From Escherichia coli (GTDB lineage Bacteria > Pseudomonadota > Gammaproteobacteria > Enterobacterales > Enterobacteriaceae): a stretch of 64,000 nt of DNA. The translations under genes and the position numbers were made by a program. Shown in pieces: positions 1 through 59,781 of the stretch. Below the pieces are notes generated by a model, which was given only the letters and a program-made list of their open reading frames with translations, searched no databases and was not told the origin of the DNA. The stretch is taken from NCBI RefSeq assembly GCF_051903065.1, contig NZ_CP178438.1, one strand, 5' to 3'. Numbering within the stretch: the first letter of the stretch is position 1; every line of letters begins with the position of its first letter.

Positions 1-70
1 CTCGCCGCAATGCTGGTTGGTCGTCCTGGTTAGGATCGATAACAACGAGCATGTTCTGATACATAGCCAT
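1..70 (-). CDS. uspE: universal stress protein E, N-terminal end only (gene runs off the window start)
   Basis: Reverse complement of 1-70 translates [23 protein letters not shown]; start codon complement at 68-70. Confidence 0.7.
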
Positions 71-221
71 ACAGGGTCTCCTTACAACAACTGTCAACGC
101 AGTTTGTAATTAAAAGATTAACCCATATCTGGTGAATGAAACAGTGATGAACCTTCTGCCAGATCAATAAATCAGAAAAATTTAATGATATGACAGAAGG
201 ATAGTGAGTTATGCGGAAAAA

Positions 222-974
222 TCAGGCAACGTTACGCGTATGACCAGCAAGCTGGGCCAGCGCATCGTTATTTTCGATGGTGATGTATTTACCTTTGACT
301 GCCAGCATACCGCTTTTCTGGAAGCGACCCAGCAGACGGCTGATGGTTTCTACCGTCAGGCCCAGATAGTTACCGATATCGCCACGAGTCATCGTCAGGC
401 GGAATTCACGAGGGGAGAAGCCGCGTTGGGCAAAACGACGGGACAGGTTGTAGATGAATGCAGCCAGACGTTCCTCGGCATTTTTCTTCGACAACAGCAG
501 GATCATGTCCTGATCGCCTTTGATTTCACCGCTCATCAGACGCATCATCTGCTGACGCAGATTCGGCATTTTACCGGACAAATCGTCCAGCGTTTCGAAC
601 GGGATTTCACATACCATCGAGGTTTCCAGCGCCTGCGCGAAGCTCGGGTGATGGCCGCTGCCGATGGCGTCAAATCCCACCAGGTCGCCTGCTAAATGGA
701 AACCAGTGATTTGCTCGTCGCCTTGCTCAGTGATGGTATAACTTTTAATCGTACCGGAGCGGATGGCATAAAGCGATTTAAGTTCATCACCAGCCTTAAA
801 CAGCGTCTGGCCTTTCTGAATAGGCTTCTTCCGCTCAATGATATTATCAAGCTGATCAAGCTCATGTTCGTTGAGTGTGAACGGGATGCAAAGCTGGCTG
901 ATGCTGCAATCCTGGCAATGGATAGCACAACCGCCAGACTGAATGCGCCGTATAATTCGCTTTTCCGGGATCAT
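222..974 (-). CDS. fnr: FNR anaerobic global regulator (CRP/FNR family)
   Basis: ORF 222-1031 contains [29 protein letters not shown] with the N-terminal Cys cluster; start trimmed to the MIPEK Met for a 250-aa product. Confidence 0.96.
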
Positions 975-993
975 AGGTCTGCTCAAGCCGTAA

Positions 994-1007
994 TTGATAT
1001 TTGTCAA
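994..1007. promoter_or_regulatory. FNR-box-like inverted repeat TTGATATTTGTCAA just upstream of the fnr start (autoregulatory site)
   Basis: Matches TTGAT-N4-ATCAA at 13 of 14 positions, about 20 nt upstream of the fnr start codon. Confidence 0.55.
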
Positions 1008-1168
1008 TTTTAACATCTTTTTAGGGAGCAAGTAAGTCTAAGCAAACCTTAACAGCAGAGAATTCCGATATTAGATGTAAATATATGTCTATCTATTTGA
1101 AAACCCTTAAGTTGTTAAGGGTAACTTTACATAAAAGTGTGAACAAGCTGGCACAAATTGTTTAATGT

Positions 1169-1684
1169 TTACAGCAAAAGATAACCTTCGTGGCGCAATA
1201 ACCACTCTTTTCGCTGAACTCCGCCTGCATATCCGGTCATGGTGCCGTTTCGGCCAATAACCCGATGGCAAGGTACGACGATGCTGATGGGATTCGATCC
1301 GTTTGCCGCACCAACGGCACGCGCCGCGCCAGGACGGCCCAATTGCTCAGCCAGTTCGCCGTAATGCATTACCTGCCCGCAGGGGATAGTGCGTAGTGTT
1401 TTCCAGACTTCGCGCTGAAATGGCGTCCCCCCCGTAGCAGTGGGAAGCGTATCAATAATGCTAAGATTACCGGCAAAATATTCACGAAGCTTGTCGCTTA
1501 AACCGCCTGGATTGGTGGCAGAAATGCGCTCATAGCCTTCTTTGCGATAATGGATGTCCAGCAGCTGCACCATGCGTTCGCTGTACTCTTCCCATTCAAC
1601 CGCCCGCAGGCGAAATTGCTCATCGCAAATCACCCACAGTGGACCCAGTGGCGTGGCAATTTTTTCTTCAAGTAATCTCAGCAT
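1169..1684 (-). CDS. ogt: O6-alkylguanine-DNA methyltransferase
   Basis: 171-aa ORF with the PCHRV active-site motif ([12 protein letters not shown]). Confidence 0.95.
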
Positions 1685-1694
1685 CCGTTCTCTC

Positions 1695-3221
1695 TTAAGA
1701 CAAACGTGGGTAAATACCCGGACCTATCGGCAGACCGACAAGATACCACGCCAGCAACATCAGCAGCCATACCACCAAAAAGATAAGTGGATAGGGCAAG
1801 ACTAACGAATAGTAAGTACCCAGTTTCGCGTCTGGTTTGTAGCGTTGCAGGAATCCAAGAAACAGTGGAACAAAAGGAGATACTGGCGCTAAAGGCAATA
1901 CGGATGAGTCGGCAATACGAAAGAGGATTTGCGCAAATGCCGGGTGAAAGCCAAGTAGCATAAACATTGGTACGAAAATGGGGGCCAGTATCGACCAGAT
2001 TGCGGAACCGCTGGCGATAAACATGCATAAGAAAGAGGAAAGCAACGCCAGACCGACAAACGCCGGGATGCCGCTAAGCCCTGAACTTTCCAGTATATCG
2101 GTCAGCCCCACGGCGATGAATTTCCCCATGTTGCTCCAGTTAAACATGGCGACAAATTGGGCGAGGGGAAAAACCATCACGATAAATCCCGCCATCTCTT
2201 TCATCGGTTCAATCATTAAATGCGGTAAATCCGCCTGACGTCGAATTGTGCGGGTAGCGATGCCATAAGCCAGCGAGACAACAAAGAAAAAAAGAATGAT
2301 CAGTGGCACGATACCTTTAATAAAGGGTGATGGCATCACGGTGTGATTAATCGGATCGCGTAATATCCCGTTTTCCGGGATCACCATCAGCGCAATCGCA
2401 GCAATAAAAAGTAGCGATACGACACCTGCTATGCGTAAACCAAAACGCTGACTTTCGGTCAATGTCTGCAGTTTCTCATCGCTGTTTCCCTGCCATTGAC
2501 CTAACCGTGGCTCGATGATTTTGTCGGTTATCAGGCCGCCAACAATCGTCAGTACGACTACGGAGCTGGCCATAAAATACCAGTTATCAATTACACTGAC
2601 GTGCATTTGCGGATTGAACGCAGCCGCCGCTTCCGTGCTGATCCCCGACAGCAACACGTCGGTTGTGACAATCAGTAAATTAGCCGTAAAGCCGCAACCT
2701 ACGCCTGCAATGGCAGCCAGTAAACCTGCAACTGGATGCCTGCCCACCGCCAGAAAAATCAGCGCACCCATCGGTGGCATGATCACTAACGCCGCATCGG
2801 AAGAAATGTGGCTGAAAAAAGCAATAAACAGCACCATATAACTGGCGTAGCGGGCATTAACATGCGATGCCATTTTAACCATTAGCGCTGGCAGTAAGCC
2901 GACGCGCTCCGCCAGACCGGCACCTAAAACCAGCGCCAGGATCGCACCAAGTGGAGCAAAACCGCTAAAGTTTTTAATAACATTGGGTAAAAACCAGTGT
3001 AATCCTTCAACACTGAGCAGGTTTTTCACCACCACCGGCGTACCATCGGTCGGGTTTTTCGCACTGACGCCAAAGGCCGACAAAATTGCCGTCGTCACCA
3101 TGAGTACGATAATCAAATAGATAAAGAGCAAAAAAGGATGGGGAACCTTGTTACCAATTCTTTCGACCCAGCCATAGAGCTTCCCGGATTGGGAGGACGA
3201 CGGTATGGATGACATACTCAT
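1695..3221 (-). CDS. abgT: p-aminobenzoyl-glutamate transporter (AbgT family)
   Basis: ORF 1695-3227 is polytopic membrane protein [23 protein letters not shown]; start set at 3221 because the GAGG Shine-Dalgarno (complement of 3229-3232) sits about 7 nt upstream. Confidence 0.9.
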
Positions 3222-3257
3222 GGGCATTCCTCGGTTGTTGTGTTTGCGTTGTTGTTG

Positions 3258-4692
3258 TTATTTTAAAGGTGACGGTGTCACGTTTTTCGGGATAGGGCAG
3301 TGGTACGGTTGCGTGTCCGTTACTTGCTGATGCTCTTGTTGGCATTCTTGCAATAGCCCTGAATCAAGGAAGAGATTGACTGTGGTTGCTGCCATAGTTT
3401 TCGCCGCCAGCAGCATTCCTTTATGAGCAATAGATGTTCGCCCCTGGCTAACCAGTTGCCACGTATGTAGGGGTGTACCGACGGCAAAACAGGGGCTGAA
3501 ACACTGGGCAACAGGCAGTTTCCAACTGACGTCGCCGACATCAGTCGATGCCGCAAGCACGTTATCGGTGGCGGCATATGGAGCGACTTCATTCGCCAGT
3601 ACCGTTTCACGATGACGTAGTGCAAAAACCTTGCCGTTTTCGCCACCGGTTGCGGCGATATTATTCAGACTGTTTTGCCGATCGTTGGAGGTGAGCGTAG
3701 CCTGAATTTGTTTCGCAAAAGCCAGTTCTTCGGAGTTCCATTCCGGGGTACCAAAATGGGATAGGGCCTGGTACATGGCATTTTCTAAGGTGCGATTCGG
3801 GAGATAACTGGAACAGGCTTTGTCGAAGCGGCATTCAACCTTGGTTTCGGTCATCAATGCCGCACCTTCGGCGATTTTGGCGACCCGATCATAAATATGC
3901 TGCACGTCGGTCATTTCGGGGGCGCGGATAAGATAAAGCACTTCTGCCTGCGCCTGGACCACGTTGGGCGAGATCCCGCCGCTATTTGTGATGGCATAGT
4001 GTACGCGCGCTTTTTCAATAATATGTTCGTTGAGGAAGTTGGTGCCAGTGGTCATCAACGTTACGGCATCAAGGGCGCTGCGTCCCAAATGAGGGGAATT
4101 CGCGGCATGTGCTGCGATCCCTTTAAAGCGCCATGATGCCTGAATGTTTGCCAGCGTGCGGGTATTGAACATACCGGCAAAGGCTTCCGGGTGCCAGGTG
4201 AGTGCCGCATCCACATCATCAAATACCCCCTCGCGAACCATGAACGTTTTACCCGAGCCGCCTTCTTCGCCAGGACAACCATAAAAGCGCACCGTGCCGC
4301 CTTGCCCATATTGTTCCAGCCATTTCTTGACGGCTATTGCAGCGGCAAAGGCGGCGGTTCCCAGCAAATTGTGTCCGCAACCGTGACCATTTTCACCGGG
4401 CGTCACGGATGTAGGTTGCGCGCAACCTGCTTGCTGACTTAAACCTGCCAGGGCGTCATATTCTCCCAGCAGGGCGATAACCGGTTTGCCTTGACCAAAC
4501 GAAGCAATAAAGGCATTTGGGATATTGCCTACGGGTGAAGCCTGCAGATTCCAGCGCCGAAGCCAGATGCTCCGCTGACCAGAACTCTTCAAAACGTGTT
4601 TCTGGATGATCCCAGATTTGATCGGCAATATCGGTATAACGTTGGCGATCGGCTTCAATCGCATCGTCGATAAAACGATAGATTTCCTGCAT
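3258..4692 (-). pseudogene. abgB: p-aminobenzoyl-glutamate hydrolase subunit B (M20 peptidase), reading frame disrupted near 4530-4540
   Basis: N-terminus MQEIYRFIDDAIEADRQRYTDIADQIWDHPETRFEEFWSAEHLASALESAGFT is in one frame (ORF 4456-4692); the rest from VGNIPNAFIASFGQGKPVIALLGEYD is in the adjacent frame (ORF 3258-4664); the switch is at a GGG run, plus-strand 4533-4535. Confidence 0.8.
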
Positions 4693-6002
4693 CAGATACC
4701 TCGCGTCCAGGGAAAATTGAGCGCGGTGCGCGCCAGCGTTTCGACGGCAATAGCGAGAACCTGCTCGTCAAAATCGAATTTTTCGTTGTGATGACCTGCC
4801 GCCAGCTGTGTGCCAAACACCACGTAGGAGGCTTGCCCTTGATGTTGCTGCACGCGGGCCATCATTAATGTGGCATCTTCGGAACCCGCAGGCGCTTCAA
4901 CACGTTCAATGGCCTGATTAACCCCCGCTACCTGAGCCGCCTGACTTTGCAACCATGCGACCCATTGCGGCGAAGGAGAACTGGCGGTAGCTGCACCCAT
5001 CAGACGAGTTTCAACGCCGACACCATACATGGTTGCTGCGCCCTGAATCGCTTGTTGTGCACGGTCAAAAACATATTGATTAATGACGTCGCTGGCCCCG
5101 CGTGTTTCCACTTTCAGCAACGCCGAGGCAGGAACAACATTACGACCGCTTCCTGCCTGCATAACGCCCACGTTTACTCTGGAAGCGCCTTCGCTGTGCG
5201 GGGCGATTGCATGTAGAGCAAGAGTTGCTTGTGCTGCCGCCAACAAGGCATTGTGACCGTCTTCTGGTTTTGCGCCTGCGTGAGCGGCGGTCCCGGTGAA
5301 GTGCGCGTCAAATTTGGTGGTTGCCATAAAATTATCACTGCCGCACACCACGGTGCCCGCAGGTACGCCAGTGCCAATGTGCACGGCAGTAAAATAATCA
5401 ACATCATCTACGACACCTGCATCGACCATCGCCCGCGCGCCACGCGTACCTTCTTCTGCAGGTTGAAAAATCAGTTTGATGATGCCATGTAGTCCGGACT
5501 CGAACTGTTTAAGGGTATGCGCCAGCCCAAGCCCAATGGCGGTATGCCCATCATGACCACAGGCATGCATCATTCCGGCGTTACATGACGCAAAACCGTC
5601 GCGGTAGGGGCGATGGCTGACATCCTGCTCTTCACTGAGATCCAGCGCGTCCATATCGACACGGAAAGCCATCACCGGACCGGGGCGACCGGTATCCAGG
5701 GTGGCGACGATACCCGTGAAACCACCTTCAAAAGCCGCAATCCATTGTGCTAGCGCACCCTGTTGACGAGCGCGCTCGAATTCGCGTTGTAGAGTGAGTT
5801 CATCAGGTAGTCCCATCCGACTACTTTCATTAACTACTTCGCGGCCCAGCGCCAGTGAATAGCCGAGCTGCTGCAATTCTTCCGCAACAAGGGTGGCAGT
5901 GCGGAATTCCACCCAGCCAGACTCTGCATAGTGATGAAAATCACGTCGCCAGTGCGATAATTTTGGGGCAAGCGAATTAACAAATTGATTCAAAGACTCC
6001 AT
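4692..6002 (-). CDS. abgA: p-aminobenzoyl-glutamate hydrolase subunit A (M20 family)
   Basis: ORF 4692-6017, start trimmed to MESLNQFVNSLAPK (436 aa); stop overlaps the abgB ATG (TGATG). Confidence 0.92.
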   Translation of the reverse strand: MESLNQFVNSLAPKLSHWRRDFHHYAESGWVEFRTATLVAEELQQLGYSLALGREVVNESSRMGLPDELTLQREFERARQQGALAQWIAAFEGGFTGIVATLDTGRPGPVMAFRVDMDALDLSEEQDVSHRPYRDGFASCNAGMMHACGHDGHTAIGLGLAHTLKQFESGLHGIIKLIFQPAEEGTRGARAMVDAGVVDDVDYFTAVHIGTGVPAGTVVCGSDNFMATTKFDAHFTGTAAHAGAKPEDGHNALLAAAQATLALHAIAPHSEGASRVNVGVMQAGSGRNVVPASALLKVETRGASDVINQYVFDRAQQAIQGAATMYGVGVETRLMGAATASSPSPQWVAWLQSQAAQVAGVNQAIERVEAPAGSEDATLMMARVQQHQGQASYVVFGTQLAAGHHNEKFDFDEQVLAIAVETLARTALNFPWTRGI

Positions 6003-6177
6003 AACCTTTCCCGTCATCAGTAAAAAGTGTGACCCGGTTCACGTAGCGATAGTTTTTACTTATCACTAACTGATTTTTCACAGTTTTAACCGTTCATAAA
6101 TTACCCTGACACAATCATCTGCATTAAAGTAGATGCCAGTTTCTTTGGTCTGATAAATAACGGTTATCGGTGGCGTC

Positions 6178-7086
6178 ATGGCTTTTCAGGTAAAAATTCA
6201 TCAAATTCGGGCTTTTGTTGAAGTGGCTCGTCAGGGCAGCATTCGCGGAGCGAGCCGAATGTTGAATATGTCGCAACCGGCACTGAGTAAATCTATTCAG
6301 GAGCTGGAAGAAGGGTTAGCGGCGCAACTCTTTTTTCGCCGTAGTAAAGGTGTGACGTTAACTGATGCCGGTGAAAGTTTTTATCAGCACGCCAGTCTTA
6401 TTCTTGAAGAGCTGCGCGCAGCCCAAGAGGATATTCGCCAACGACAAGGGCAACTGGCAGGGCAGATTAATATCGGCATGGGGGCCAGTATTTCCCGCAG
6501 TCTGATGCCAGCTGTCATATCTCGTTTTCATCAGCAGCATCCGCAGGTAAAAGTACGCATTATGGAAGGGCAACTGGTGTCGATGATTAATGAATTGCGT
6601 CAGGGAGAATTGGATTTCACCATCAATACCTATTATCAGGGACCGTACGACCACGAATTTACTTTTGAGAAATTACTGGAAAAGCAATTCGCGATCTTTT
6701 GCCGCCCGGGACACCCCGCCATTGGTGCCCGTTCGATCAAACAGTTACTGGATTACAGCTGGACAATGCCGACGCCACACGGCAGCTACTACAAACAGTT
6801 GAGTGAATTGCTTGACGATCAGGCGCAAACGCCACAGGTCGGTGTAGTCTGCGAGACGTTCTCAGCCTGTATCAGTCTGGTGGCAAAAAGCGATTTTCTC
6901 AGCATACTGCCTGAAGAAATGGGCTGCGATCCCTTGCACGGACAGGGGCTGGTGATGTTGCCGGTTAGCGAAATTTTACCGAAAGCGGCCTATTATTTGA
7001 TTCAGCGGCGTGATAGTCGCCAGACACCACTGACCGCGTCATTAATCACGCAATTCCGGCGAGAATGCGGCTATCTGCAAAGTTAA
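6178..7086 (+). CDS. abgR: LysR-type transcriptional regulator of the abg operon
   Basis: 302-aa ORF with N-terminal HTH (ASRMLNMSQPALSKSIQELEE), divergent from abgA. Confidence 0.93.
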   Translation: MAFQVKIHQIRAFVEVARQGSIRGASRMLNMSQPALSKSIQELEEGLAAQLFFRRSKGVTLTDAGESFYQHASLILEELRAAQEDIRQRQGQLAGQINIGMGASISRSLMPAVISRFHQQHPQVKVRIMEGQLVSMINELRQGELDFTINTYYQGPYDHEFTFEKLLEKQFAIFCRPGHPAIGARSIKQLLDYSWTMPTPHGSYYKQLSELLDDQAQTPQVGVVCETFSACISLVAKSDFLSILPEEMGCDPLHGQGLVMLPVSEILPKAAYYLIQRRDSRQTPLTASLITQFRRECGYLQS

Positions 7087-7093
7087 AACTGCA

Positions 7094-7188
7094 TAAAAAA
7101 ATAGAGTCTGTCGACATCCGCCAGACTCTACAGTACACACAGCAGTGCATCCGCGTCTTAAATCCGGCATTGTCTCCTCTGCGCCGGT
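7094..7188 (-). ncRNA. mcaS: McaS (IsrA) small RNA with intrinsic terminator
   Basis: abgR-smrA intergenic; minus-strand hairpin TAGAGTCTG / CAGACTCTA (7102-7130) followed by a U7 tract; TATAAC -10 box just upstream of the predicted 5' end; about 95 nt, matching the known position. Confidence 0.7.
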
Positions 7189-7415
7189 GACTGTGTTATA
7201 ACGGTTTTAACCTTTAGTTGCCAATTTTCTTCAGTGACAGATTTCACGAAAATATAAGTTACATTATTAATATCGTGAATGAATAATCATGCATAAGCAT
7301 TTTGCTTAAAATATCGGCAATATTTGGAACTTATTACTGGAATTTTGGGTAATACGTTGTTGGACCGACCCGGTCTGGTTATCATATCGCGCTCTTAATT
7401 GCGGGAGGATGTAAC

Positions 7416-7979
7416 ATGAACCTTGACGACAAATCGCTGTTTCTTGACGCCATGGAAGATGTCCAGCCGCTGAAACGTGCTACCGATGTCCACTGGCATC
7501 CAACGCGTAACCAACGTGCGCCGCAGCGTATCGACACGCTGCAGCTTGATAATTTCCTCACTACCGGATTTCTCGACATTATCCCGCTAAGTCAGCCGCT
7601 GGAGTTTCGGCGGGAAGGGTTGCAACATGGGGTGCTGGATAAGCTGCGTAGTGGTAAATATCCGCAACAGGCGAGCCTGAATCTTTTGCGCCAGCCGGTG
7701 GAAGAGTGCCGCAAAATGGTGTTCAGTTTCATTCAACAAGCCCTGGCGGATGGTTTGCGTAACGTGCTGATTATTCATGGTAAAGGGCGGGATGATAAAT
7801 CGCATGCCAATATTGTCCGCAGCTATGTGGCGCGCTGGCTGACCGAATTTGATGATGTTCAGGCATATTGCACCGCACTACCGCATCATGGCGGCAGCGG
7901 GGCGTGTTACGTCGCACTACGTAAAACGGCGCAGGCGAAGCAAGAAAACTGGGAGCGCCACGCTAAGCGCAGTCGTTGA
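7416..7979 (+). CDS. smrA: Smr-domain DNA endonuclease
   Basis: 187-aa ORF MNLDDKSLFLDAMEDVQPLK with C-terminal Smr domain (LIIHGKGRDDKS). Confidence 0.9.
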   Translation: MNLDDKSLFLDAMEDVQPLKRATDVHWHPTRNQRAPQRIDTLQLDNFLTTGFLDIIPLSQPLEFRREGLQHGVLDKLRSGKYPQQASLNLLRQPVEECRKMVFSFIQQALADGLRNVLIIHGKGRDDKSHANIVRSYVARWLTEFDDVQAYCTALPHHGGSGACYVALRKTAQAKQENWERHAKRSR

Positions 7980-7999
7980 TCTCGAGACGCATCCGCGGC

Positions 8000-9232
8000 T
8001 TATGCCGCCAGCACGCGGTTGCGTCCATCATTTTTCGCCCGATACAAAGCATCATCAACGCGTTTAAACAGTTCATCGATGCTTTCATTTCCTTCGTGAT
8101 GCGCCACACCAATGCTGACGGTAAAGCGTGGTAAGCCCGAAATACTCACTTTTGCCACGCTTACGCGGATAGTTTCAGCCAGCGAAAGTGCAGTATCCAG
8201 TGGGGTTCTTGGTAGCAATAAGACAAACTCTTCGCCTCCCCAACGAAACACCAAATCGCCTTTGCGAGCGCAACTTTCGAGGGTGCGGGCGAGGGCGCAT
8301 AACACCTCATCACCTTTAGAATGCCCATAGAGATCGTTAATGTGTTTAAAACGATCGGTGTCGATGAGCAACAAGCTGTAATCCTGAGCGATGGCGAGAT
8401 GCTGCATTTGGCCTGGTTCCGTAATGTGATAAAACTGTCGCCGATTCAGTAATCCGGTCATCGCGTCATGGTGAGCAGCATGTTCCAGCTGCTCCTCCAG
8501 CCGTTTTTGCTCAGTAATATCATGCACAATACATAACATGAGCTTGTCGCCATAAATTTCAATCGGTCCGGCATAGGTCTGCACATGACGAGTAGAACCA
8601 TCCGCCAGCCTATGAATAAAATTCAAAGGCTTATGACCACCGGGTAAATGCGAGATTTCATGCATGATAGGCATGACGCGACGCCCGAGCATATTAATTT
8701 CCCATGTATGTTTCTGGCACATCGTTTCATGGTTATAACCATAGAAATTGAGCGCGGCGAGGTTAGCATCGACGATTTGGCCATCTCGTGAGGGGTCAAT
8801 CAACAACATTGGTGCAGAGTTAGTCAGAAAAAAGCGCGCATAAAAACCTTGTTTTTTGCGCTGATAATTTGCCGAGCGACTGGCTTTTAAACCCAGCGTT
8901 GTCGGCGCTTCGATTCCTTCGAAAATAATCACCGGTTCTGCTTCTGTCAGCTTTCGCAAAACAAGCCGACAGCTCAATGCTGTTTCCTCTTCATTGCGCT
9001 GAACGGTGAGGATTTCGATAATATCGTGTTGGTTTTGCAGATCGGAGAGGTATTTCGGCAGTTCTTTTTGTGAGGAGACGGAATAGGGACCGGTTCGTAG
9101 CTGACTAAACGTGAGGTCTTGCATCAACAGTCGCGCCGCGCTATTGGCATAAATTAACTGTTCCTCAAAGGGCGAAACGATCCAGACAGGACTGGTGAGT
9201 AAGTCCAGGGTATTGAAGTTGTGCGTAATCAT
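8000..9232 (-). CDS. dgcM: PAS-GGDEF diguanylate cyclase
   Basis: 410-aa ORF with GGEEF active-site motif (VFRWGGEEFVLLL) and N-terminal PAS regions. Confidence 0.93.
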   Translation of the reverse strand: MITHNFNTLDLLTSPVWIVSPFEEQLIYANSAARLLMQDLTFSQLRTGPYSVSSQKELPKYLSDLQNQHDIIEILTVQRNEEETALSCRLVLRKLTEAEPVIIFEGIEAPTTLGLKASRSANYQRKKQGFYARFFLTNSAPMLLIDPSRDGQIVDANLAALNFYGYNHETMCQKHTWEINMLGRRVMPIMHEISHLPGGHKPLNFIHRLADGSTRHVQTYAGPIEIYGDKLMLCIVHDITEQKRLEEQLEHAAHHDAMTGLLNRRQFYHITEPGQMQHLAIAQDYSLLLIDTDRFKHINDLYGHSKGDEVLCALARTLESCARKGDLVFRWGGEEFVLLLPRTPLDTALSLAETIRVSVAKVSISGLPRFTVSIGVAHHEGNESIDELFKRVDDALYRAKNDGRNRVLAA

Positions 9233-9465
9233 TGAGATCCCATTATTTTTATCAATTTTTGTTGCTATCCGATCGCAATAAAGTCACGTCATATGATCAG
9301 ATAATTCTGATAATGATAGACGCTATTTAACACTTCACACGGTTTGTATACGGAAAAGCATTTTGCTTTTTGTATTCAATTTAGACAGAATTTTATTAAT
9401 CATTTCAGGGTAATGGGGTGATGAGATGTTGCGTAACAGGGCCAGAAGGCTAGACTACAAAATAA

Positions 9466-10470
<1,005 letters not shown>

Positions 10471-10516
10471 CAAAAGCAATTTTTCCGGCTGTCTGTATAC
10501 AAAAACGCCGCAAAGT

Positions 10517-10530
10517 TTGAGCGAAGTCAA
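10517..10530. promoter_or_regulatory. FNR-box-like site TTGAGCGAAGTCAA upstream of fnrS
   Basis: TTGAN-N4-NTCAA half-sites centred about 41 nt upstream of the predicted fnrS 5' end, with a CAATAT -10-like hexamer at 10553-10558. Confidence 0.55.
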
Positions 10531-10565
10531 TAAACTCTCTACCCATTCAGGGCAATATCTCTCTT

Positions 10566-10687
10566 GCAGGTGAATGCAACGTCAAGCGATGGGCGTTGCG
10601 CTCCATATTGTCTTACTTCCTTTTTTGAATTACTGCATAGCACAATTGATTCGTACGACGCCGACTTTGATGAGTCGGCTTTTTTTT
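10566..10687 (+). ncRNA. fnrS: FnrS small RNA (FNR-activated) with intrinsic terminator
   Basis: zntB-dbpA intergenic; canonical terminator GCCGACT-ttgatga-GTCGGC then T8 (10660-10687); C/U-rich single-stranded stretch CTTACTTCCTTTTTT; about 122 nt. Confidence 0.7.
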
Positions 10688-10744
10688 GCCTGTTATTTAT
10701 CAGCGTCTACCCTTTAAGAGTCCACCCAATGACCAGAGGGAAAT

Positions 10745-10918
10745 ATGACGACACTTATTTATTTGCAAATTCCTGTCCCTGAACCGATTCCTGGCGATCC
10801 TGTTCCAGTGCCCGATCCGATCCCTCGCCCGCAACCCATGCCTGACCCACCACCCGATGAAGAACCGATTAAATTGTCGCATCGTGAACGTAGATCTGCG
10901 AGGATACGCGCCTGCTAA
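10745..10918 (+). CDS. hypothetical proline-rich small protein (57 aa) upstream of dbpA
   Basis: ATG at 10745 with GAGGG Shine-Dalgarno 6 nt upstream; translation MTTLIYLQIPVPEPIPGDPVPVPDPIPRPQPMPDPPPDEEPIKLSHRERRSARIRAC; below the 60-aa cut-off of the ORF track. Confidence 0.3.
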   Translation: MTTLIYLQIPVPEPIPGDPVPVPDPIPRPQPMPDPPPDEEPIKLSHRERRSARIRAC

Positions 10919-10947
10919 CTTTGCGTCGATGACCACGAGAATAGATT

Positions 10948-12321
10948 GTGACCGCTTTTTCTACCCTGAATGTTTTGCCTCCCGCCCAACTCACGAACCT
11001 TAATGAGTTGGGTTATTTAACCATGACGCCGGTGCAGGCCGCCGCGCTTCCGGCGATCCTTGCCGGAAAAGATGTTCGCGTGCAGGCGAAAACCGGCAGC
11101 GGCAAAACGGCGGCTTTTGGCCTCGGCTTGTTACAGCAAATTGATGCGTCGCTATTTCAAACCCAGGCTTTAGTGCTGTGTCCTACGCGTGAACTGGCGG
11201 ATCAGGTGGCAGGTGAATTGCGTCGGCTGGCGCGTTTTCTGCCAAATACCAAAATTTTGACGTTGTGCGGTGGTCAACCGTTCGGTATGCAGCGTGATTC
11301 GTTGCAACATGCGCCGCATATTATCGTGGCAACGCCGGGTCGTTTGCTGGATCACTTGCAAAAAGGCACGGTATCACTGGATGCGCTGAATACTTTGGTG
11401 ATGGATGAGGCCGACCGCATGCTGGATATGGGATTTAGCGATGCCATTGATGATGTCATCCGTTTTGCGCCTGCATCTCGACAGACGCTTCTGTTTTCGG
11501 CAACCTGGCCGGAAGCCATCGCTGCAATCAGCGGACGAGTGCAACGCGATCCTTTGGCGATTGAAATTGACTCAACAGATGCTTTGCCACCCATTGATCA
11601 ACAATTTTATGAGACATCCAGTAAAGGCAAAATTCCTCTGTTGCAACGGTTATTAAGCTTGCATCAGCCATCCTCTTGCGTGGTGTTTTGCAATACCAAA
11701 AAAGATTGCCAGGCTGTCTGCGACGCGCTGAATGAAGTAGGGCAAAGTGCATTGTCATTACACGGCGATTTGGAGCAACGCGATCGTGATCAGACCTTGG
11801 TACGTTTTGCTAACGGTAGCGCCCGTGCACTGGTCGCGACTGATGTTGCTGCGCGTGGTCTGGATATTAAATCGCTTGAGCTGGTGGTGAACTTTGAGCT
11901 GGCGTGGGACCCTGAAGTTCATGTACATCGCATCGGTCGTACAGCTCGTGCAGGAAATAGCGGTCTGGCGATCAGTTTCTGTGCTCCGGAAGAAGCACAG
12001 CGGGCCAATATCATTTCTGACATGTTGCAGATAAAACTTAACTGGCAAACGCCGCCAGCTAATAGTTCCATTGTGACGCTGGAAGCAGAAATGGCAACGT
12101 TGTGTATCGATGGCGGGAAAAAAGCCAAAATGCGCCCGGGTGATGTATTAGGTGCACTGACAGGAGATATCGGGCTTGATGGCGCAGATATTGGCAAAAT
12201 CGCCGTGCATCCGGCGCATGTCTATGTCGCGGTCCGTCAGGCTGTTGCTCATAAAGCATGGAAACAGTTACAGGGCGGGAAGATTAAAGGAAAAACGTGC
12301 CGGGTGCGGTTATTAAAATAA
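10948..12321 (+). CDS. dbpA: DEAD-box ATP-dependent RNA helicase (23S rRNA specific)
   Basis: 457-aa ORF with GTG start, Walker A (AKTGSGKT), DEAD box (VMDEADRMLDMGF), SAT and HRIGRTAR motifs. Confidence 0.95.
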   Translation: MTAFSTLNVLPPAQLTNLNELGYLTMTPVQAAALPAILAGKDVRVQAKTGSGKTAAFGLGLLQQIDASLFQTQALVLCPTRELADQVAGELRRLARFLPNTKILTLCGGQPFGMQRDSLQHAPHIIVATPGRLLDHLQKGTVSLDALNTLVMDEADRMLDMGFSDAIDDVIRFAPASRQTLLFSATWPEAIAAISGRVQRDPLAIEIDSTDALPPIDQQFYETSSKGKIPLLQRLLSLHQPSSCVVFCNTKKDCQAVCDALNEVGQSALSLHGDLEQRDRDQTLVRFANGSARALVATDVAARGLDIKSLELVVNFELAWDPEVHVHRIGRTARAGNSGLAISFCAPEEAQRANIISDMLQIKLNWQTPPANSSIVTLEAEMATLCIDGGKKAKMRPGDVLGALTGDIGLDGADIGKIAVHPAHVYVAVRQAVAHKAWKQLQGGKIKGKTCRVRLLK

Positions 12322-12369
12322 TGAAATGTTGAATTGCCGGGTGCAAGAGTAAACATCTTATTCGGGATT

Positions 12370-12439
12370 GCCGGATGCGACGCTGGCCGCGTCTTATCCG
12401 GCCTCCATAAGAGTAGCCCGATACGCTTGCGCATCGGGC
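12370..12439. repeat. REP-type extragenic palindromes between convergent dbpA and ttcA
   Basis: GCCGGATGCGACGCTGGCCGCGTCTTATCCGGCCTCC (12370-12406) plus hairpin GCCCGAT / ATCGGGC (12416-12439). Confidence 0.5.
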
Positions 12440-12449
12440 GCTATCCTGG

Positions 12450-13385
12450 TTATTTCACTTCAACCACATTCAGCCGTAACTCATCCAACTGATTTTCATC
12501 TTCTTCTGGCTGCCAGCCCGCCGGTTGTAGTGGGATCTCTTCGCGATCAAACGCCAGATCACCCCCGTTAACCACTTCAGAACCGTGGGTGATGCCTTTG
12601 AAATCGAACAGGTTGGTATCGCACAGATGCGACGGCACCACATTCTGCATCGCGCTGAACATCGTCTCGATACGCCCTGGATAACGTTTATCCCAGTCAC
12701 GCAACATGTCAGCAATCACCTGACGTTGCAGGTTAGGCTGTGAACCGCACAGGTTGCACGGAATAATCGGGAACGCTTTTGCATCGGCAAATCGCTGAAT
12801 ATCTTTCTCGCGGCAGTAGGCCAGCGGACGAATAACGATATGTTTGCCATCATCGCTCATCAGTTTCGGAGGCATACCTTTCATCTTGCCGCCGTAGAAC
12901 ATATTTAAGAACAACGTTTGCAGGATATCGTCACGATGGTGGCCCAACGCGATCTTCGTCGCCCCCAGTTCCGTTGCGGTGCGATAAAGGATACCGCGAC
13001 GTAGCCGAGAACACAGTGAGCAAGTGGTTTTGCCCTCTGGAATCTTCTCTTTCACGATACCGTAAGTGTTCTCTTCAACAATCTTGTACTCAACGCCCAG
13101 CTTTTCAAGATACTCGGGCAGAACGTGTTCCGGGAAGCCCGGTTGCTTTTGATCGAGGTTAACAGCCACCAGCGAAAAATTGATTGGCGCGCTTTGCTGC
13201 AAATTGCGCAGAATCTCCAGCATGGTATAGCTGTCTTTACCCCCGGAGAGGCAAACCATGATGCGATCGCCTTCTTCAATCATATTGAAGTCAGCAATGG
13301 CTTCGCCCACGTTACGACGCAGGCGTTTTTGTAATTTGTTCAGATTGTATTGTTCTTTCTTGCTAATTTCTTGATTTTGCGACAT
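12450..13385 (-). CDS. ttcA: tRNA 2-thiocytidine(32) synthetase
   Basis: 311-aa ORF with PP-loop SGGKDS and CxxC pairs (CSLCSR, CNLCGS). Confidence 0.93.
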
Positions 13386-13524
13386 TTAAAAGCGACTCAA
13401 TTCGTTATATGGCATCAGAAGAGTATGCGTCATGCCGGAACGCCCAGCATAAGAAATCTGATATAAAAACTGTGGCGTGTATGGTACGGATTAGAGGGGA
13501 AAATGTCAGCACATTTGCGAAATG

Positions 13525-13553
13525 AATCAAAAAGCCCGCAGCAATGTGCGGGC
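13525..13553 (-). terminator. intrinsic terminator downstream of uspF
   Basis: Minus-strand hairpin GCCCGCA-cattgc-TGCGGGC followed by a T-rich run (TTTTTGATTCATTT). Confidence 0.55.
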
Positions 13554-13560
13554 GTTAGTG

Positions 13561-14076
<516 letters not shown>

Positions 14077-14135
14077 TTAGATCAAAGGAGGAAGAATAAG
14101 CAGAAAAAGCCCGCCATAACAGCGGGCAGGAGGAT

Positions 14136-15269
14136 TTAGAACTGATAAACCAGACCTAAAGCGACAATATCATCGGTAGAGATGCCGTTGGCAGCGTAGA
14201 AACTGTCATCTTCATCCAACAGGTTGATTTTATAGTCAACATAAGTGGACATGTTTTTATTGAAATAGTAAGTCGCGCCAACATCGGCGTATTTAACCAG
14301 ATCTTTATCATCAACACCTGCCGGGTTGTCTGCACCACCGGCAGCGTGCAGGTCACGGCCTTTAGACATCAGGAAAGAGACTGCCGGACGCAGACCAAAA
14401 TCAAACTGGTACTGTGCAGTGACTTCAAAGTTCTGGGTTTTGTTTGCAACAGCATAATCGCTGTCGCCAAACGGGGTCATATTACGCGTTTCTGAATACA
14501 TGGTTGCCAGGTAAATATTGTTAGCATCGTATTTTAGCCCAGCAGTCCACGCGTCTGCTTTATCACCACCCGCCGCAGTATGGTTAACCTGGTCATTGGT
14601 GCGGTCAGAAGAGGTGTATGCCGCACCAGCGCTAAAGCCCATGCCTAAATCATATGTTGTGGAAAGACCCCAGCCGTCACCGTTTTCATGGCGAACATCA
14701 CGTCCGTTGTTGGTGCCTTCCTGACCATTACTGGCTCCTTCGTTGTTACCTTGATACTGCACCGCGAAGTTCAGACCATTTACCAGACCGAAGAAATCAG
14801 TATTACGATAAGTCGCGACGCCATTGGCTCGACCAGTCATAAAGTTGTCTGCATTGGTATAAGAGTCACCGCCAAATTCAGGCTGCATATCGGTCCAGCC
14901 TTCGATGTCGTACATTACGCCATAATTACGTCCGTAATCGAAAGAACCGTAATCTGCAAATTTCAGTCCGGCAAATGCCAGACGGGTCCATGACTGGTTT
15001 TTTGAAGATTCAGTGTTGTTTGCCTGAATATTGTATTCCCATTGACCGTAGCCAGTAAGTTGATCGTTAATTTGGGTTTCGCCTTTAAAACCCAGACGCG
15101 CATAGCTCTGGTCGCCATCTTTCGCTGAATTATCAGAAAAATAATGCAGGCCATCAACTTTGCCATACAGATCTAATTTGTTGCCGTCTTTATTATAAAC
15201 TTCGGCTGCATGTGCAGCACCTGCGGCGAGCAGGGCAGGAATTAAAAGTGCCAGTACTTTGCTTTTCAT
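14136..15269 (-). CDS. ompN: outer membrane porin N (OmpC/F family)
   Basis: 377-aa ORF with signal peptide [37 protein letters not shown] and C-terminal ...GLVYQF. Confidence 0.93.
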
Positions 15270-32770: not shown

Positions 32771-35076
32771 ATGTTTAAGCCCAGGATTTGCAGCTGGATA
32801 GGTTTACTTCCCCTGTTTATGCTGAGTCTTCCAGTACAGGCGGAACTTCGATGCGTTGCAAATGCAGTTGATATTGAACTTTTTTTTCTGCGGCTACCGC
32901 TGAAGATAAACAACAAGTTGAACAAGCTATCAACAGTAGCGTGAATCTTGTCCCCTTCGGTTTATCTGCATCGGACTGGAAAGTGCATCGTGGCGATTTA
33001 GTGATAGAAGGTAATATAGAGAGTAATCAAAAATTGATTGTTCTTGGCAATTTGACAGTCAAAGGTAATATTTCCACTTTCTCTCTTTCTAATCCATGGG
33101 TTATTCTCGGTAACGTGACGGCAACGAATATAGTTACGGATTCACCACTGTTAATTACCGGTTCGATAAATGCAAGTGGACTGGTATTTATCGACTCATA
33201 TTACGATAATCCGTCTACGATTAAGGGGAGTATTAATGCGCGTGGGATATTTATCAATGACATAATTGCACCTGTTGTTGCGTCTTCGACAAATAGTGAA
33301 TTCATGGTCCGTGCGAGTGACAAAAATGACACTGAAAATGTCAAAAAAGCGCTGATGATAATAAATCCTGATGCATATTATTGGGGTCTAATAAATGATG
33401 AAGATGCTCTGAAAGAAATTTTTAAGCGAAGCAATATTCGCATGGCAGGGAATGTCTGTAATCAGATGAAAAAAGAAGCGCTGTTTCGCCCTAAGCCTTC
33501 TCCTGAGTTAGTGCAGGAATTGCAAATGCTGGATGAAGGCAACGTTGCTGCATTTGAAGGACGAGATATTGCGACATTTGATCTTGCCATAATGCGAACT
33601 CTCCCAAGGCTTAAAGGAATTTCAGCTAACCTACGCAAACAACTTATTAATAGCAATGATGGACAAACGATTGCAAGTATGGCGAGATATATGCCTGACA
33701 ATGAGATTCTGGAGTTGACCGATCAGCAATTGGGTTACCAGCCTGTTGTTCTGGGGTTGCTCGACCGTGAACCGCTCTCTGTCGAAATAATGACGCGAAT
33801 GAGTCATCTACCTGATGGTGTCGGTCCGTTGAATCTTGCGCTACGTGAAAATCTTCCTCTGGATATCGTCATGACTCTGGCGAAAAGAGATTGGGATATG
33901 ATCATTCAGGAGCTTTATAAAGATGCGTGGTTATTGCCCGAATCCATTATTGATGGCTATATCCGCAGTGATGATTCCTCTATTCGTCAGGTCGGTGCTG
34001 GAGGACAACTCACCTACAATCAGGCAATGCAGTTGGCGAACGATTCATCAAACGATGTTGTCACAAGCTTAGCGTTAAAGCTGGCAGAGATGAAACACCA
34101 TGGTCAATTGTTGCGGATGACGCCACAAGAGAGTGACAAAATAGCAGTATATTTATACCAAAAATTCGAGAATGACGATGATCTAATAGGTGCGTTATTT
34201 TTAGCGTTGCCAGATAACTTACAGTTTAATTTTGTTAAAAGGATGGAGAAAAAATCCCCTGCCTATTTTTGCTGTCGGGATATGCAGATAATTCACTCTG
34301 ACGCTGCTTTACAACGGTTATTGACACGTTTCAACGATCCTGAGGGGTGGAGTAATCTGGCGAAAAATCAGTATCTGAGCACGTCGATGAAACAAAAAAT
34401 TTGGCAACGTGCTTTATCGCATCGGAAAAATAATCCCAAAGCAGATTCAGATGCATATGAAACCAGCGCTGATATGATTTTGTCTGAGCTTATCAGCTAC
34501 GGTGAAGTTGATGACCAGATGCTATTAAATGCCACCTCTCTGATACGTTCGGACGACTGGGACTTTTTAGAGAGAGCATTAATTAGTTGGGATAATTTAC
34601 CCGCTGTTGTTCTCAAGGAATTACAGCAAAACACGCTACGCAATGATATTTGGGCGAAGTTTTTTCTGAGGCAGGAAAACAGTTCCCGTGCGCAGGTTAA
34701 CGAAGCGTTACGTGTTTATTATGCACTAGACCCCGATGCGTTAGCACAACTGGATGTACTGGCAAAACAACCGGATCGTATATGGTGGAGTACACTGGCG
34801 AAAAGCAATCTCACATTTTTCAAGTTCGGCGCACTTAACAACCGCCACACACCGCCTGCGGTACTGGCGGCAGAAATTGATCCCGAGTGGTGGATTGTGG
34901 CGATGAATAATCTCCGTTTTCCAGTTGATGTATTAAAGGCGAGGCTGAAACGTGATCCTTTGCTGGCGTTAGAGCTTGTTAACCCTGAACTGGATTTAGT
35001 TCGCCAGCTGGCGCTTAACGGTAAGACGCGCGCAATACGGGAACAAGCGATGAGAAAACTTGATGAGTTGTATTGA
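32771..35076 (+). pseudogene. ydbD: secreted protein of unknown function, N-terminus out of frame with the body (shift inside a T8 run at 32880-32887)
   Basis: ATG at 32771 encodes signal peptide MFKPRICSWIGLLPLFMLSLPVQA...VDIELFF and stops at TGA 32942-32944; the 711-aa body (ORF 32941-35076) continues backwards in the adjacent frame as SAATAEDKQQVEQAINSSVNLVPF to the T run; 57 + 711 codons would be one 768-aa protein. Confidence 0.8.
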
Positions 35077-58198: not shown

Positions 58199-59191
58199 AT
58201 GCAGAGCGATAAAGTGCTCAATTTGCCGGCAGGCTACTTTGGTATTGTGTTGGGGACGATAGGGATGGGATTTGCCTGGCGCTATGCCAGTCAGGTTTGG
58301 CAGGTCAGCCACTGGTTAGGGGATGGGCTGGTGATTCTGGCGATGATCATCTGGGGATTATTGACTAGCGCATTTATTACCCGACTCATACGCTTTCCGC
58401 ATAGCGTGCTGGCGGAAGTTCGCCATCCAGTGCTGAGCAGTTTTGTGAGTTTGTTTCCGGCAACGACGATGCTGGTGGCGATTGGTTTTGTTCCGTGGTT
58501 TCGCCCACTGGCGGTGTGCCTGTTCAGTTTTGGTGTCGTGGTTCAGTTGGCTTATGCCGCCTGGCAAACTGCGGGATTATGGCGCGGATCTCACCCTGAA
58601 GAAGCTACCACGCCTGGACTGTATCTGCCGACAGTTGCCAACAACTTTATCAGCGCAATGGCCTGTGGTGCGTTGGGCTACACCGACGCCGGTCTGGTGT
58701 TTTTAGGCGCAGGCGTTTTCTCATGGCTAAGCCTTGAACCGGTGATCTTGCAGCGTCTGCGCAGTTCGGGAGAATTACCCACGGCACTGCGGACATCTCT
58801 CGGCATTCAGCTCGCTCCTGCGCTGGTGGCCTGTAGTGCCTGGCTGAGCGTCAACGGCGGCGAGGGTGACACGCTGGCGAAAATGCTTTTCGGTTATGGA
58901 CTGCTGCAACTGCTGTTTATGCTACGTCTGATGCCATGGTATCTCTCCCAGCCATTTAATGCTTCATTCTGGAGTTTCTCGTTCGGCGTATCTGCACTGG
59001 CAACCACCGGTTTGCATCTGGGGAGTGGCAGCGATAATGGATTTTTCCATACGCTGGCGGTGCCGCTGTTTATCTTTACCAATTTTATTATTGCAATACT
59101 GCTCATCCGTACTTTTGCGCTTCTGATGCAGGGAAAATTGTTAGTCAGAGCCGAGCGCGCCGTTTTAATGAAAGCAGAGGACAAAGAATGA
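58199..59191 (+). CDS. tehA: tellurite resistance / dicarboxylate-exchanger-type membrane protein
   Basis: ORF 58091-59191 trimmed to [27 protein letters not shown] (330 aa), 10 TM helices. Confidence 0.93.
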
Positions 59192-59781
59192 TCATTCGTG
59201 ACGAAAATTATTTTACTGATAAATATGAATTAACCCGCACACACTCTGAAGTACTGGAAGCGGTGAAAGTGGTTAAACCGGGTAAAACGCTGGATCTGGG
59301 CTGTGGCAATGGTCGTAACAGTCTTTACCTGGCAGCCAATGGTTATGATGTTGACGCATGGGATAAAAATGCCATGAGTATCGCCAACGTCGAGCGCATT
59401 AAATCCATTGAAAATCTGGATAATTTACACACCCGGGGCGTTGATCTGAATAACCTCACATTTGATGGACAGTACGATTTTATTCTTTCGACTGTGGTAC
59501 TGATGTTCCTTGAGGCTAAAACCATCCCAGGGCTGATTGCCAATATGCAACGTTGCACGAAACCTGGTGGTTACAACCTGATTGTGGCGGCGATGGATAC
59601 CGCTGATTATCCATGTACCGTCGGCTTCCCGTTTGCCTTCAAAGAGGGAGAATTACGTCGATATTACGAAGACTGGGAGATGGTGAAATACAATGAGGAC
59701 GTCGGCGAGCTGCACCGCACCGACGCCAACGGTAATCGTATTAAACTGCGTTTCGCCACGATGCTGGCACGTAAAAAATGA
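59188..59781 (+). CDS. tehB: tellurite methyltransferase (SAM-dependent)
   Basis: 197-aa ORF with SAM-binding [15 protein letters not shown]; start overlaps the tehA stop (ATGA). Confidence 0.95.

Follow-up and report, generated by a model that had tools for sequence, protein, structure and literature searches.

A clone-private abgB pseudogene in Escherichia coli, very probably formed by a recent 11-bp deletion

In Escherichia coli, p-aminobenzoyl-glutamate hydrolase (PGH) is a Mn2+-dependent alpha2beta2 tetramer of AbgA and AbgB (PMC5082436), and four AbgB residues, E81, H111, E146 and H171, are putative metal residues, being aligned there with the residues by which carboxypeptidase G2 binds its metal (PMC5082436). 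The closest characterised counterpart of the gene considered here is abgB of E. coli K-12 (UniProt P76052), which codes for PGH subunit B in the abgR/abgABT cluster. The window, by which we mean the whole stretch of 64,000 bp that was analysed, holds the same locus with the same gene order (fnr-ogt-abgT-abgB-abgA / abgR-smrA), and the two abgB genes belong to one protein family, TIGR01891 / Peptidase_M20. The copy in the window differs from the K-12 gene in that it has 11 bp less and loses the frame after codon 53, so that a null allele is predicted.

The window is a part of the E. coli chromosome, and its positions 1-9300 comprise fnr, ogt, abgT, abgB and abgA on the minus strand, followed by abgR and smrA on the plus strand and finally by dgcM. 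The product of abgB is subunit B of p-aminobenzoyl-glutamate hydrolase, an amidohydrolase of the M20D type, and the gene in the window (3258..4692) matches TIGR01891 and Pfam Peptidase_M20/M20_dimer. The stop codon of abgA and the start codon of abgB overlap, abgT is situated downstream of the broken gene, and abgR is transcribed divergently. The features of the locus are as follows.

1695..3221, minus strand: abgT (p-aminobenzoyl-glutamate transporter), intact, identical to abgT of 23CRST027 (508 aa, WP_000062967.1)
3258..4692, minus strand: abgB pseudogene, aligned end to end with the annotated abgB of DH5alpha and 23CRST027 save for one 11-bp gap
3258..4533, minus strand: remainder of abgB on the 3' side, which lies in the other frame and codes for AbgB residues 58-481 up to the stop codon (VGNIPNAF... 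to ...SPLK)
4456..4692, minus strand: 78-aa ORF on the 5' side, composed of AbgB residues 1-53 and 25 residues read out of frame, with its stop codon at 4456-4458
4533..4534, minus strand: deletion junction, unique gap placement, 0 bp of microhomology
4692..6002, minus strand: abgA (hydrolase subunit A), intact, DNA identical to the 23CRST027 copy that is annotated as intact (436 aa)
6178..7086, plus strand: abgR (LysR-type regulator), intact, a 302-aa ORF identical to abgR of 23CRST027

The broken abgB is 1,435 bp long, compared with the normal 1,446 bp. In alignments with DH5alpha, AF57 and 23CRST027 it lacks 11 bases, GTTACCCGCAA on the minus strand or TTGCGGGTAAC on the plus strand, which correspond to codons V54-T55-R56-N57 minus one base. 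The DH5alpha reference reads GGCTTCACC GTTACCCGCAA CGTAGGCAAT and is translated as G F T V T R N V G N, whereas in the window GGCTTCACC is joined to CGTAGGCAAT across a single gap. Base-by-base comparison gives the plus-strand reference at this site as ...CTACG/TTGCGGGTAAC/GGTGAAG..., the slashes marking the ends of the missing segment, and on the minus strand the junction of the deletion allele is GCTTCACC/CGTAGGC. The GGG seen on the plus strand at 4533-4535 owes its existence to the junction, where the G of ...TACG meets the GG of GGTGAAG.... We consider it very probable that abgB was broken by an 11-bp deletion which is a real mutation and of recent origin in the line leading to this isolate; such an event would have taken out abgB codons 54-57 less one base.

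As regards the mechanism of the deletion, a flanking direct repeat was looked for at the junction, and 0 bp was found; the nearest imperfect 6-mers, CACCGT and CAACGT, are spaced by 12 bp, not 11. A hairpin-mediated event was also considered and rejected: the deleted segment can be bridged by a stem of 4 bp, CGTT/AACG, but shuffled sequences fold equally well as DNA (z = -0.19).

The interruption leaves two overlapping reading frames. The ORF at 4456-4692 is translated as MQEIYRFIDDAIEADRQRYTDIADQIWDHPETRFEEFWSAEHLASALESAGFT, then RRQYPKCLYCFVWSRQTGYRPAGRI, then a stop, with MQEIY...ESAGFT native and RRQYPK... following the break. No Pfam domain was detected in this product of 78 aa, and its match to TIGR01891, over profile positions 1-51, falls below the threshold. 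The 3' frame stays open upstream of the junction to an ATG at 4664, yielding an ORF of 468 aa (3258-4664, minus strand) that is reported by gene callers and retains a match to Peptidase_M20 as well as a TIGR01891 match of 382 bits (profile positions 30-366). In intact AbgB the Pfam M20 match begins at residue 78. The match to TIGR01891 begins at residue 19, however, and HmrA (3RAM), a homologue of solved structure, can be aligned from residue 8 onwards; the 57 N-terminal residues thus belong to the conserved fold. The gene is nearly identical to the characterised E. coli abgB and occupies its place in the abgR / abgA-abgB-abgT cluster, yet a single uninterrupted ORF of 481 codons is absent, and abgB of the window thus belongs to the family as a pseudogene, not as a functioning gene.

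For comparison with other strains, a 321-bp query spanning the lesion (window 4380-4700) was searched against 5,426 complete RefSeq E. coli genomes. It had matches in 4,199 of them, the top identity being 96.7%, with 332 bases in the record against 321 in the query; in DH5alpha, for instance, 321 of the 332 aligned positions match and the 11-bp gap is the sole difference. With a 71-bp query centred on the junction and run against the complete RefSeq E. coli genomes, all 4,199 genomes bearing abgB aligned at 71/82 (86.6%), hence all of them carry the 11 bases, and the deletion allele was found in none of the other complete RefSeq E. coli genomes with abgB (0/4,199). The length of the gene is equally stable: in an evenly spaced sample of 59 full-length matches, abgB spanned 1,446 bp in 58 and 1,445 bp in one (NZ_CM194525.1). 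Thus, the copy in the window is an exception in a gene that is intact as a rule.

The nearest genomes, 23CRST027 and 23CRST031, match window positions 1-25000 across 25,011 bases. Comparison of 23CRST027 (NZ_AP045789.1; its record gives human faeces, Ecuador, as the source) with the full 64,000-bp window yielded four mismatches (19378, 28949, 38932 and 59438), one gap opening of 11 bases and no other indel, which places the strain of the window as a very close but distinct relative. Over the whole gene, abgB is identical to its 23CRST027 counterpart save for the gap, and abgA, abgT and abgR are base-identical to the 23CRST027 copies, annotated there as intact; WP_000062967.1 is the AbgT accession in DH5alpha too. 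Judged by position, the four substitutions lie between nifJ and ydbJ, in the IS1 transposase gene, in ynbD and in tehB.

The deletion allele is already on record in public assemblies. The 468-aa ORF, which spans the junction, was found verbatim in a public protein collection, with both NCBI and Logan as sources, the Logan collection being made up of assemblies of public sequencing runs; the exact 78-aa product was absent from the protein collection. We located the 468-aa ORF on contig JATALX010000030.1 of the draft assembly GCA_036912935.1, where a 21-kb stretch is 100% identical to the window over positions 1-14664 (14.7 kb), the deletion included. This contig is 44,944 bp long and, by coordinate arithmetic, ends at about 28.85 kb of the window, inside the IS1 annotated in 23CRST027. 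Short-read contigs typically end within IS copies. From its end inside IS1 we conclude that GCA_036912935.1 was assembled separately from the window, which runs through 64 kb without a break. The deletion is therefore reproduced in at least two, and probably three, assemblies, with independence at the level of assembly, as the draft and the Logan record may share an isolate or even a sequencing run. A literature search on the strain and assembly identifiers returned no match.

There are two ways in which the break could be something other than a genuine 11-bp loss. The preliminary description had located the break of the abgB frame at 4533-4535, with 53 and 424 codons in adjacent frames, and the ORF translations confirm both the site and the counts, which are exact (codons 1-53 in 4456-4692; codons 58-481 in 3258-4533). 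The cause proposed there, one extra G in a G/C homopolymer arising by real slippage or by a miscall, has a visible GGG run at 4533-4535 and the frame arithmetic on its side; we nevertheless give it practically no credence. The alignment with reference abgB suggested there places the break at the same position and traces it to one 11-bp gap rather than to one G: other genomes have 11 more bases at the site (...TACG TTGCGGGTAAC GGTGAAG...), not one fewer. Removal of a single G does restore the frame, but only arithmetically, as a change of -11 is equivalent to +1 modulo 3, and the product would miss V54-T55-R56-N57. Likewise, the suggestion that resequencing might reveal GG in place of GGG is based on a wrong model of the lesion, since the GG version, ...TACGGTGAAG..., is itself a 12-bp in-frame deletion, that is, an abgB shorter by 12 bp, and was seen in none of the 4,199 genomes. 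A homopolymer-length error or slippage would be expected to change the length of a run also present in relatives by one or two bases, to be accompanied by similar indels elsewhere in the assembly and to be absent from independent assemblies; what we observe is a difference of 11 bases with a GGG produced by the junction, no other indel in 64 kb compared with 23CRST027, and the same junction in GCA_036912935.1 and the Logan record. More generally, the fact that a frame can be restored by removing one base does not reveal the actual lesion.

The other possibility is that the 11-bp gap itself was introduced during assembly or sequencing, abgB being intact in the living strain. The allele is indeed missing from all 4,199 abgB-bearing complete RefSeq genomes, the near-identical 23CRST027 and 23CRST031 included, and the support for the deletion comes from assembled sequences. 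Still, we regard an artefact as quite improbable. A homopolymer sequencing error, as had been considered before, would change the length of a run by 1 bp, not 11, and the loss of 11 bp from non-repetitive sequence is atypical of platform errors in general. Moreover, the gap is the sole indel in 64 kb relative to a genome with four substitutions, and the identical junction recurs in a separately assembled draft and a Logan record. With only four substitutions and one gap relative to 23CRST027, the assembly is free of indel noise; given this and the presence of the junction in separate assemblies, we are almost certain that the deletion is real and arose recently within a small clone.

If so, translation from the usual start codon of abgB would give 53 native residues, continue out of frame for 25 codons and end at 4456-4458. 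The putative metal residues E81, H111, E146 and H171 and the dimerisation domain are all encoded beyond this premature stop, and a 78-residue product devoid of them would not be able to form the AbgA2-AbgB2 hydrolase. As the p-aminobenzoyl-glutamate hydrolase tetramer would thus be lacking, there is a strong case, on sequence grounds, that the strain has lost this activity. The same loss, with abgT, abgA and abgR kept, had been offered as one option in the preliminary description, and it is supported by the 53 remaining native residues, by the junction in separate assemblies and by the identity of the neighbouring genes to intact copies.

The gene could retain its function if translation started at the out-of-frame ATG at 4664, or if ribosomes changed frame, so that a 468-aa protein with residues 58-481 paired with AbgA. 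The shifted frame is open from 4664 through the junction, and the ORF reported by gene callers keeps its Peptidase_M20 match and TIGR01891 positions 30-366. On the other hand, no Shine-Dalgarno-like motif was seen ahead of 4664 when the sequence was read by eye, this ATG lies 28 nt within the translated native ORF, and 44 unrelated residues would stand in place of the 57 native N-terminal ones, in a region that aligns with HmrA and is part of the conserved fold. The two-frame arrangement occurs in no other genome, which argues against a programmed frameshift. Taken together, we judge a functional product to be very improbable and hold to the loss of the hydrolase. Two related candidates were examined and rejected. 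Restart after the junction would use the first in-frame Met at about AbgB residue 150, with the loss of E81, H111 and probably E146. Programmed ribosomal frameshifting is at odds with the 11 bases being present in 4,199 of 4,199 other genomes and with the length of 1,446 bp in 58 of 59 sampled copies.

Despite the loss of AbgB, abgA, abgT and abgR remain intact, although polarity may lower the expression of abgT. An effect of this kind is possible because about 1.2 kb of untranslated mRNA would now precede abgT.

As for the population context, no match to abgB was found in 1,225-1,227 of the 5,426 complete E. coli genomes (~23%), hence the function is dispensable. These abg-negative strains indicate that loss of the hydrolase is tolerated in nature, as in the strain of the window; they differ in that they contain no sequence matching the abgB queries, while in the window abgB alone is inactivated, and by a small lesion. 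We infer that the loss of abgB is nearly neutral.

A second case of a small lesion is provided by AF57 (NZ_OZ546943.1), whose abgB also has an 11-bp deletion in its first 250 bp and is labelled 'frameshifted' by PGAP, with abgA, abgT and abgR annotated as intact. Its deletion removes TATCGCCCTGC, about 60 bp downstream of the site affected in the window (the equivalent window positions are about 4460-4475), and its background is different (91.6% identity over the 321-bp query, both 11-bp gaps counted). We regard the deletions in AF57 and in the window as independent events. The equal length of 11 bp looks coincidental, as the two sequence contexts share nothing. AF57 is an unrelated blood-culture isolate. 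One might suppose that the two 5' deletions of 11 bp are convergent hits, so that loss of AbgB with AbgA, AbgT and AbgR kept is selected rather than neutral. If this were true, AbgT transport uncoupled from hydrolysis might alter the handling of folate catabolites or antifolates. The one observation in favour of selection is the pair of independent small deletions, and we find such selection very doubtful, preferring near-neutral loss.

Thus, abgB here is a pseudogene of an ordinary kind, private to one clone and part of a salvage operon that is dispensable. It should be annotated as a pseudogene formed by an 11-bp deletion rather than as a suspected homopolymer error, and the strain should be predicted to be incapable of p-aminobenzoyl-glutamate cleavage. 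The junction GCTTCACC/CGTAGGC, private among more than 4,000 genomes, could be used as a marker of the small clone; beyond correct annotation the finding is of little importance.

Several other features were noted in the window. A large autotransporter gene (approximately 24986-31627) is situated at the position of ydbA, a name inferred from the location, and is split by IS1A at about 28754-29451, the IS1 in which contig JATALX010000030.1 ends; in 23CRST027 each half carries the annotation of a partial pseudogene. The 5' part of this pseudogene contains tandem repeats with a period of 30 bp (25283-25642; approximately 90% identity between offset copies), which surfaced as offset self-matches in the BLAST comparison. 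The ydbD gene (approximately 32771-35076) bears the label 'frameshifted' in 23CRST027. The window has the same sequence there, which makes this a second pseudogene, common to the relatives. At approximately 58770-60492, an IS200/IS605 tnpA gene with an internal stop adjoins an intact gene for an RNA-guided endonuclease of the insQ/TnpB family, according to the annotation of 23CRST027, to which the window is identical.
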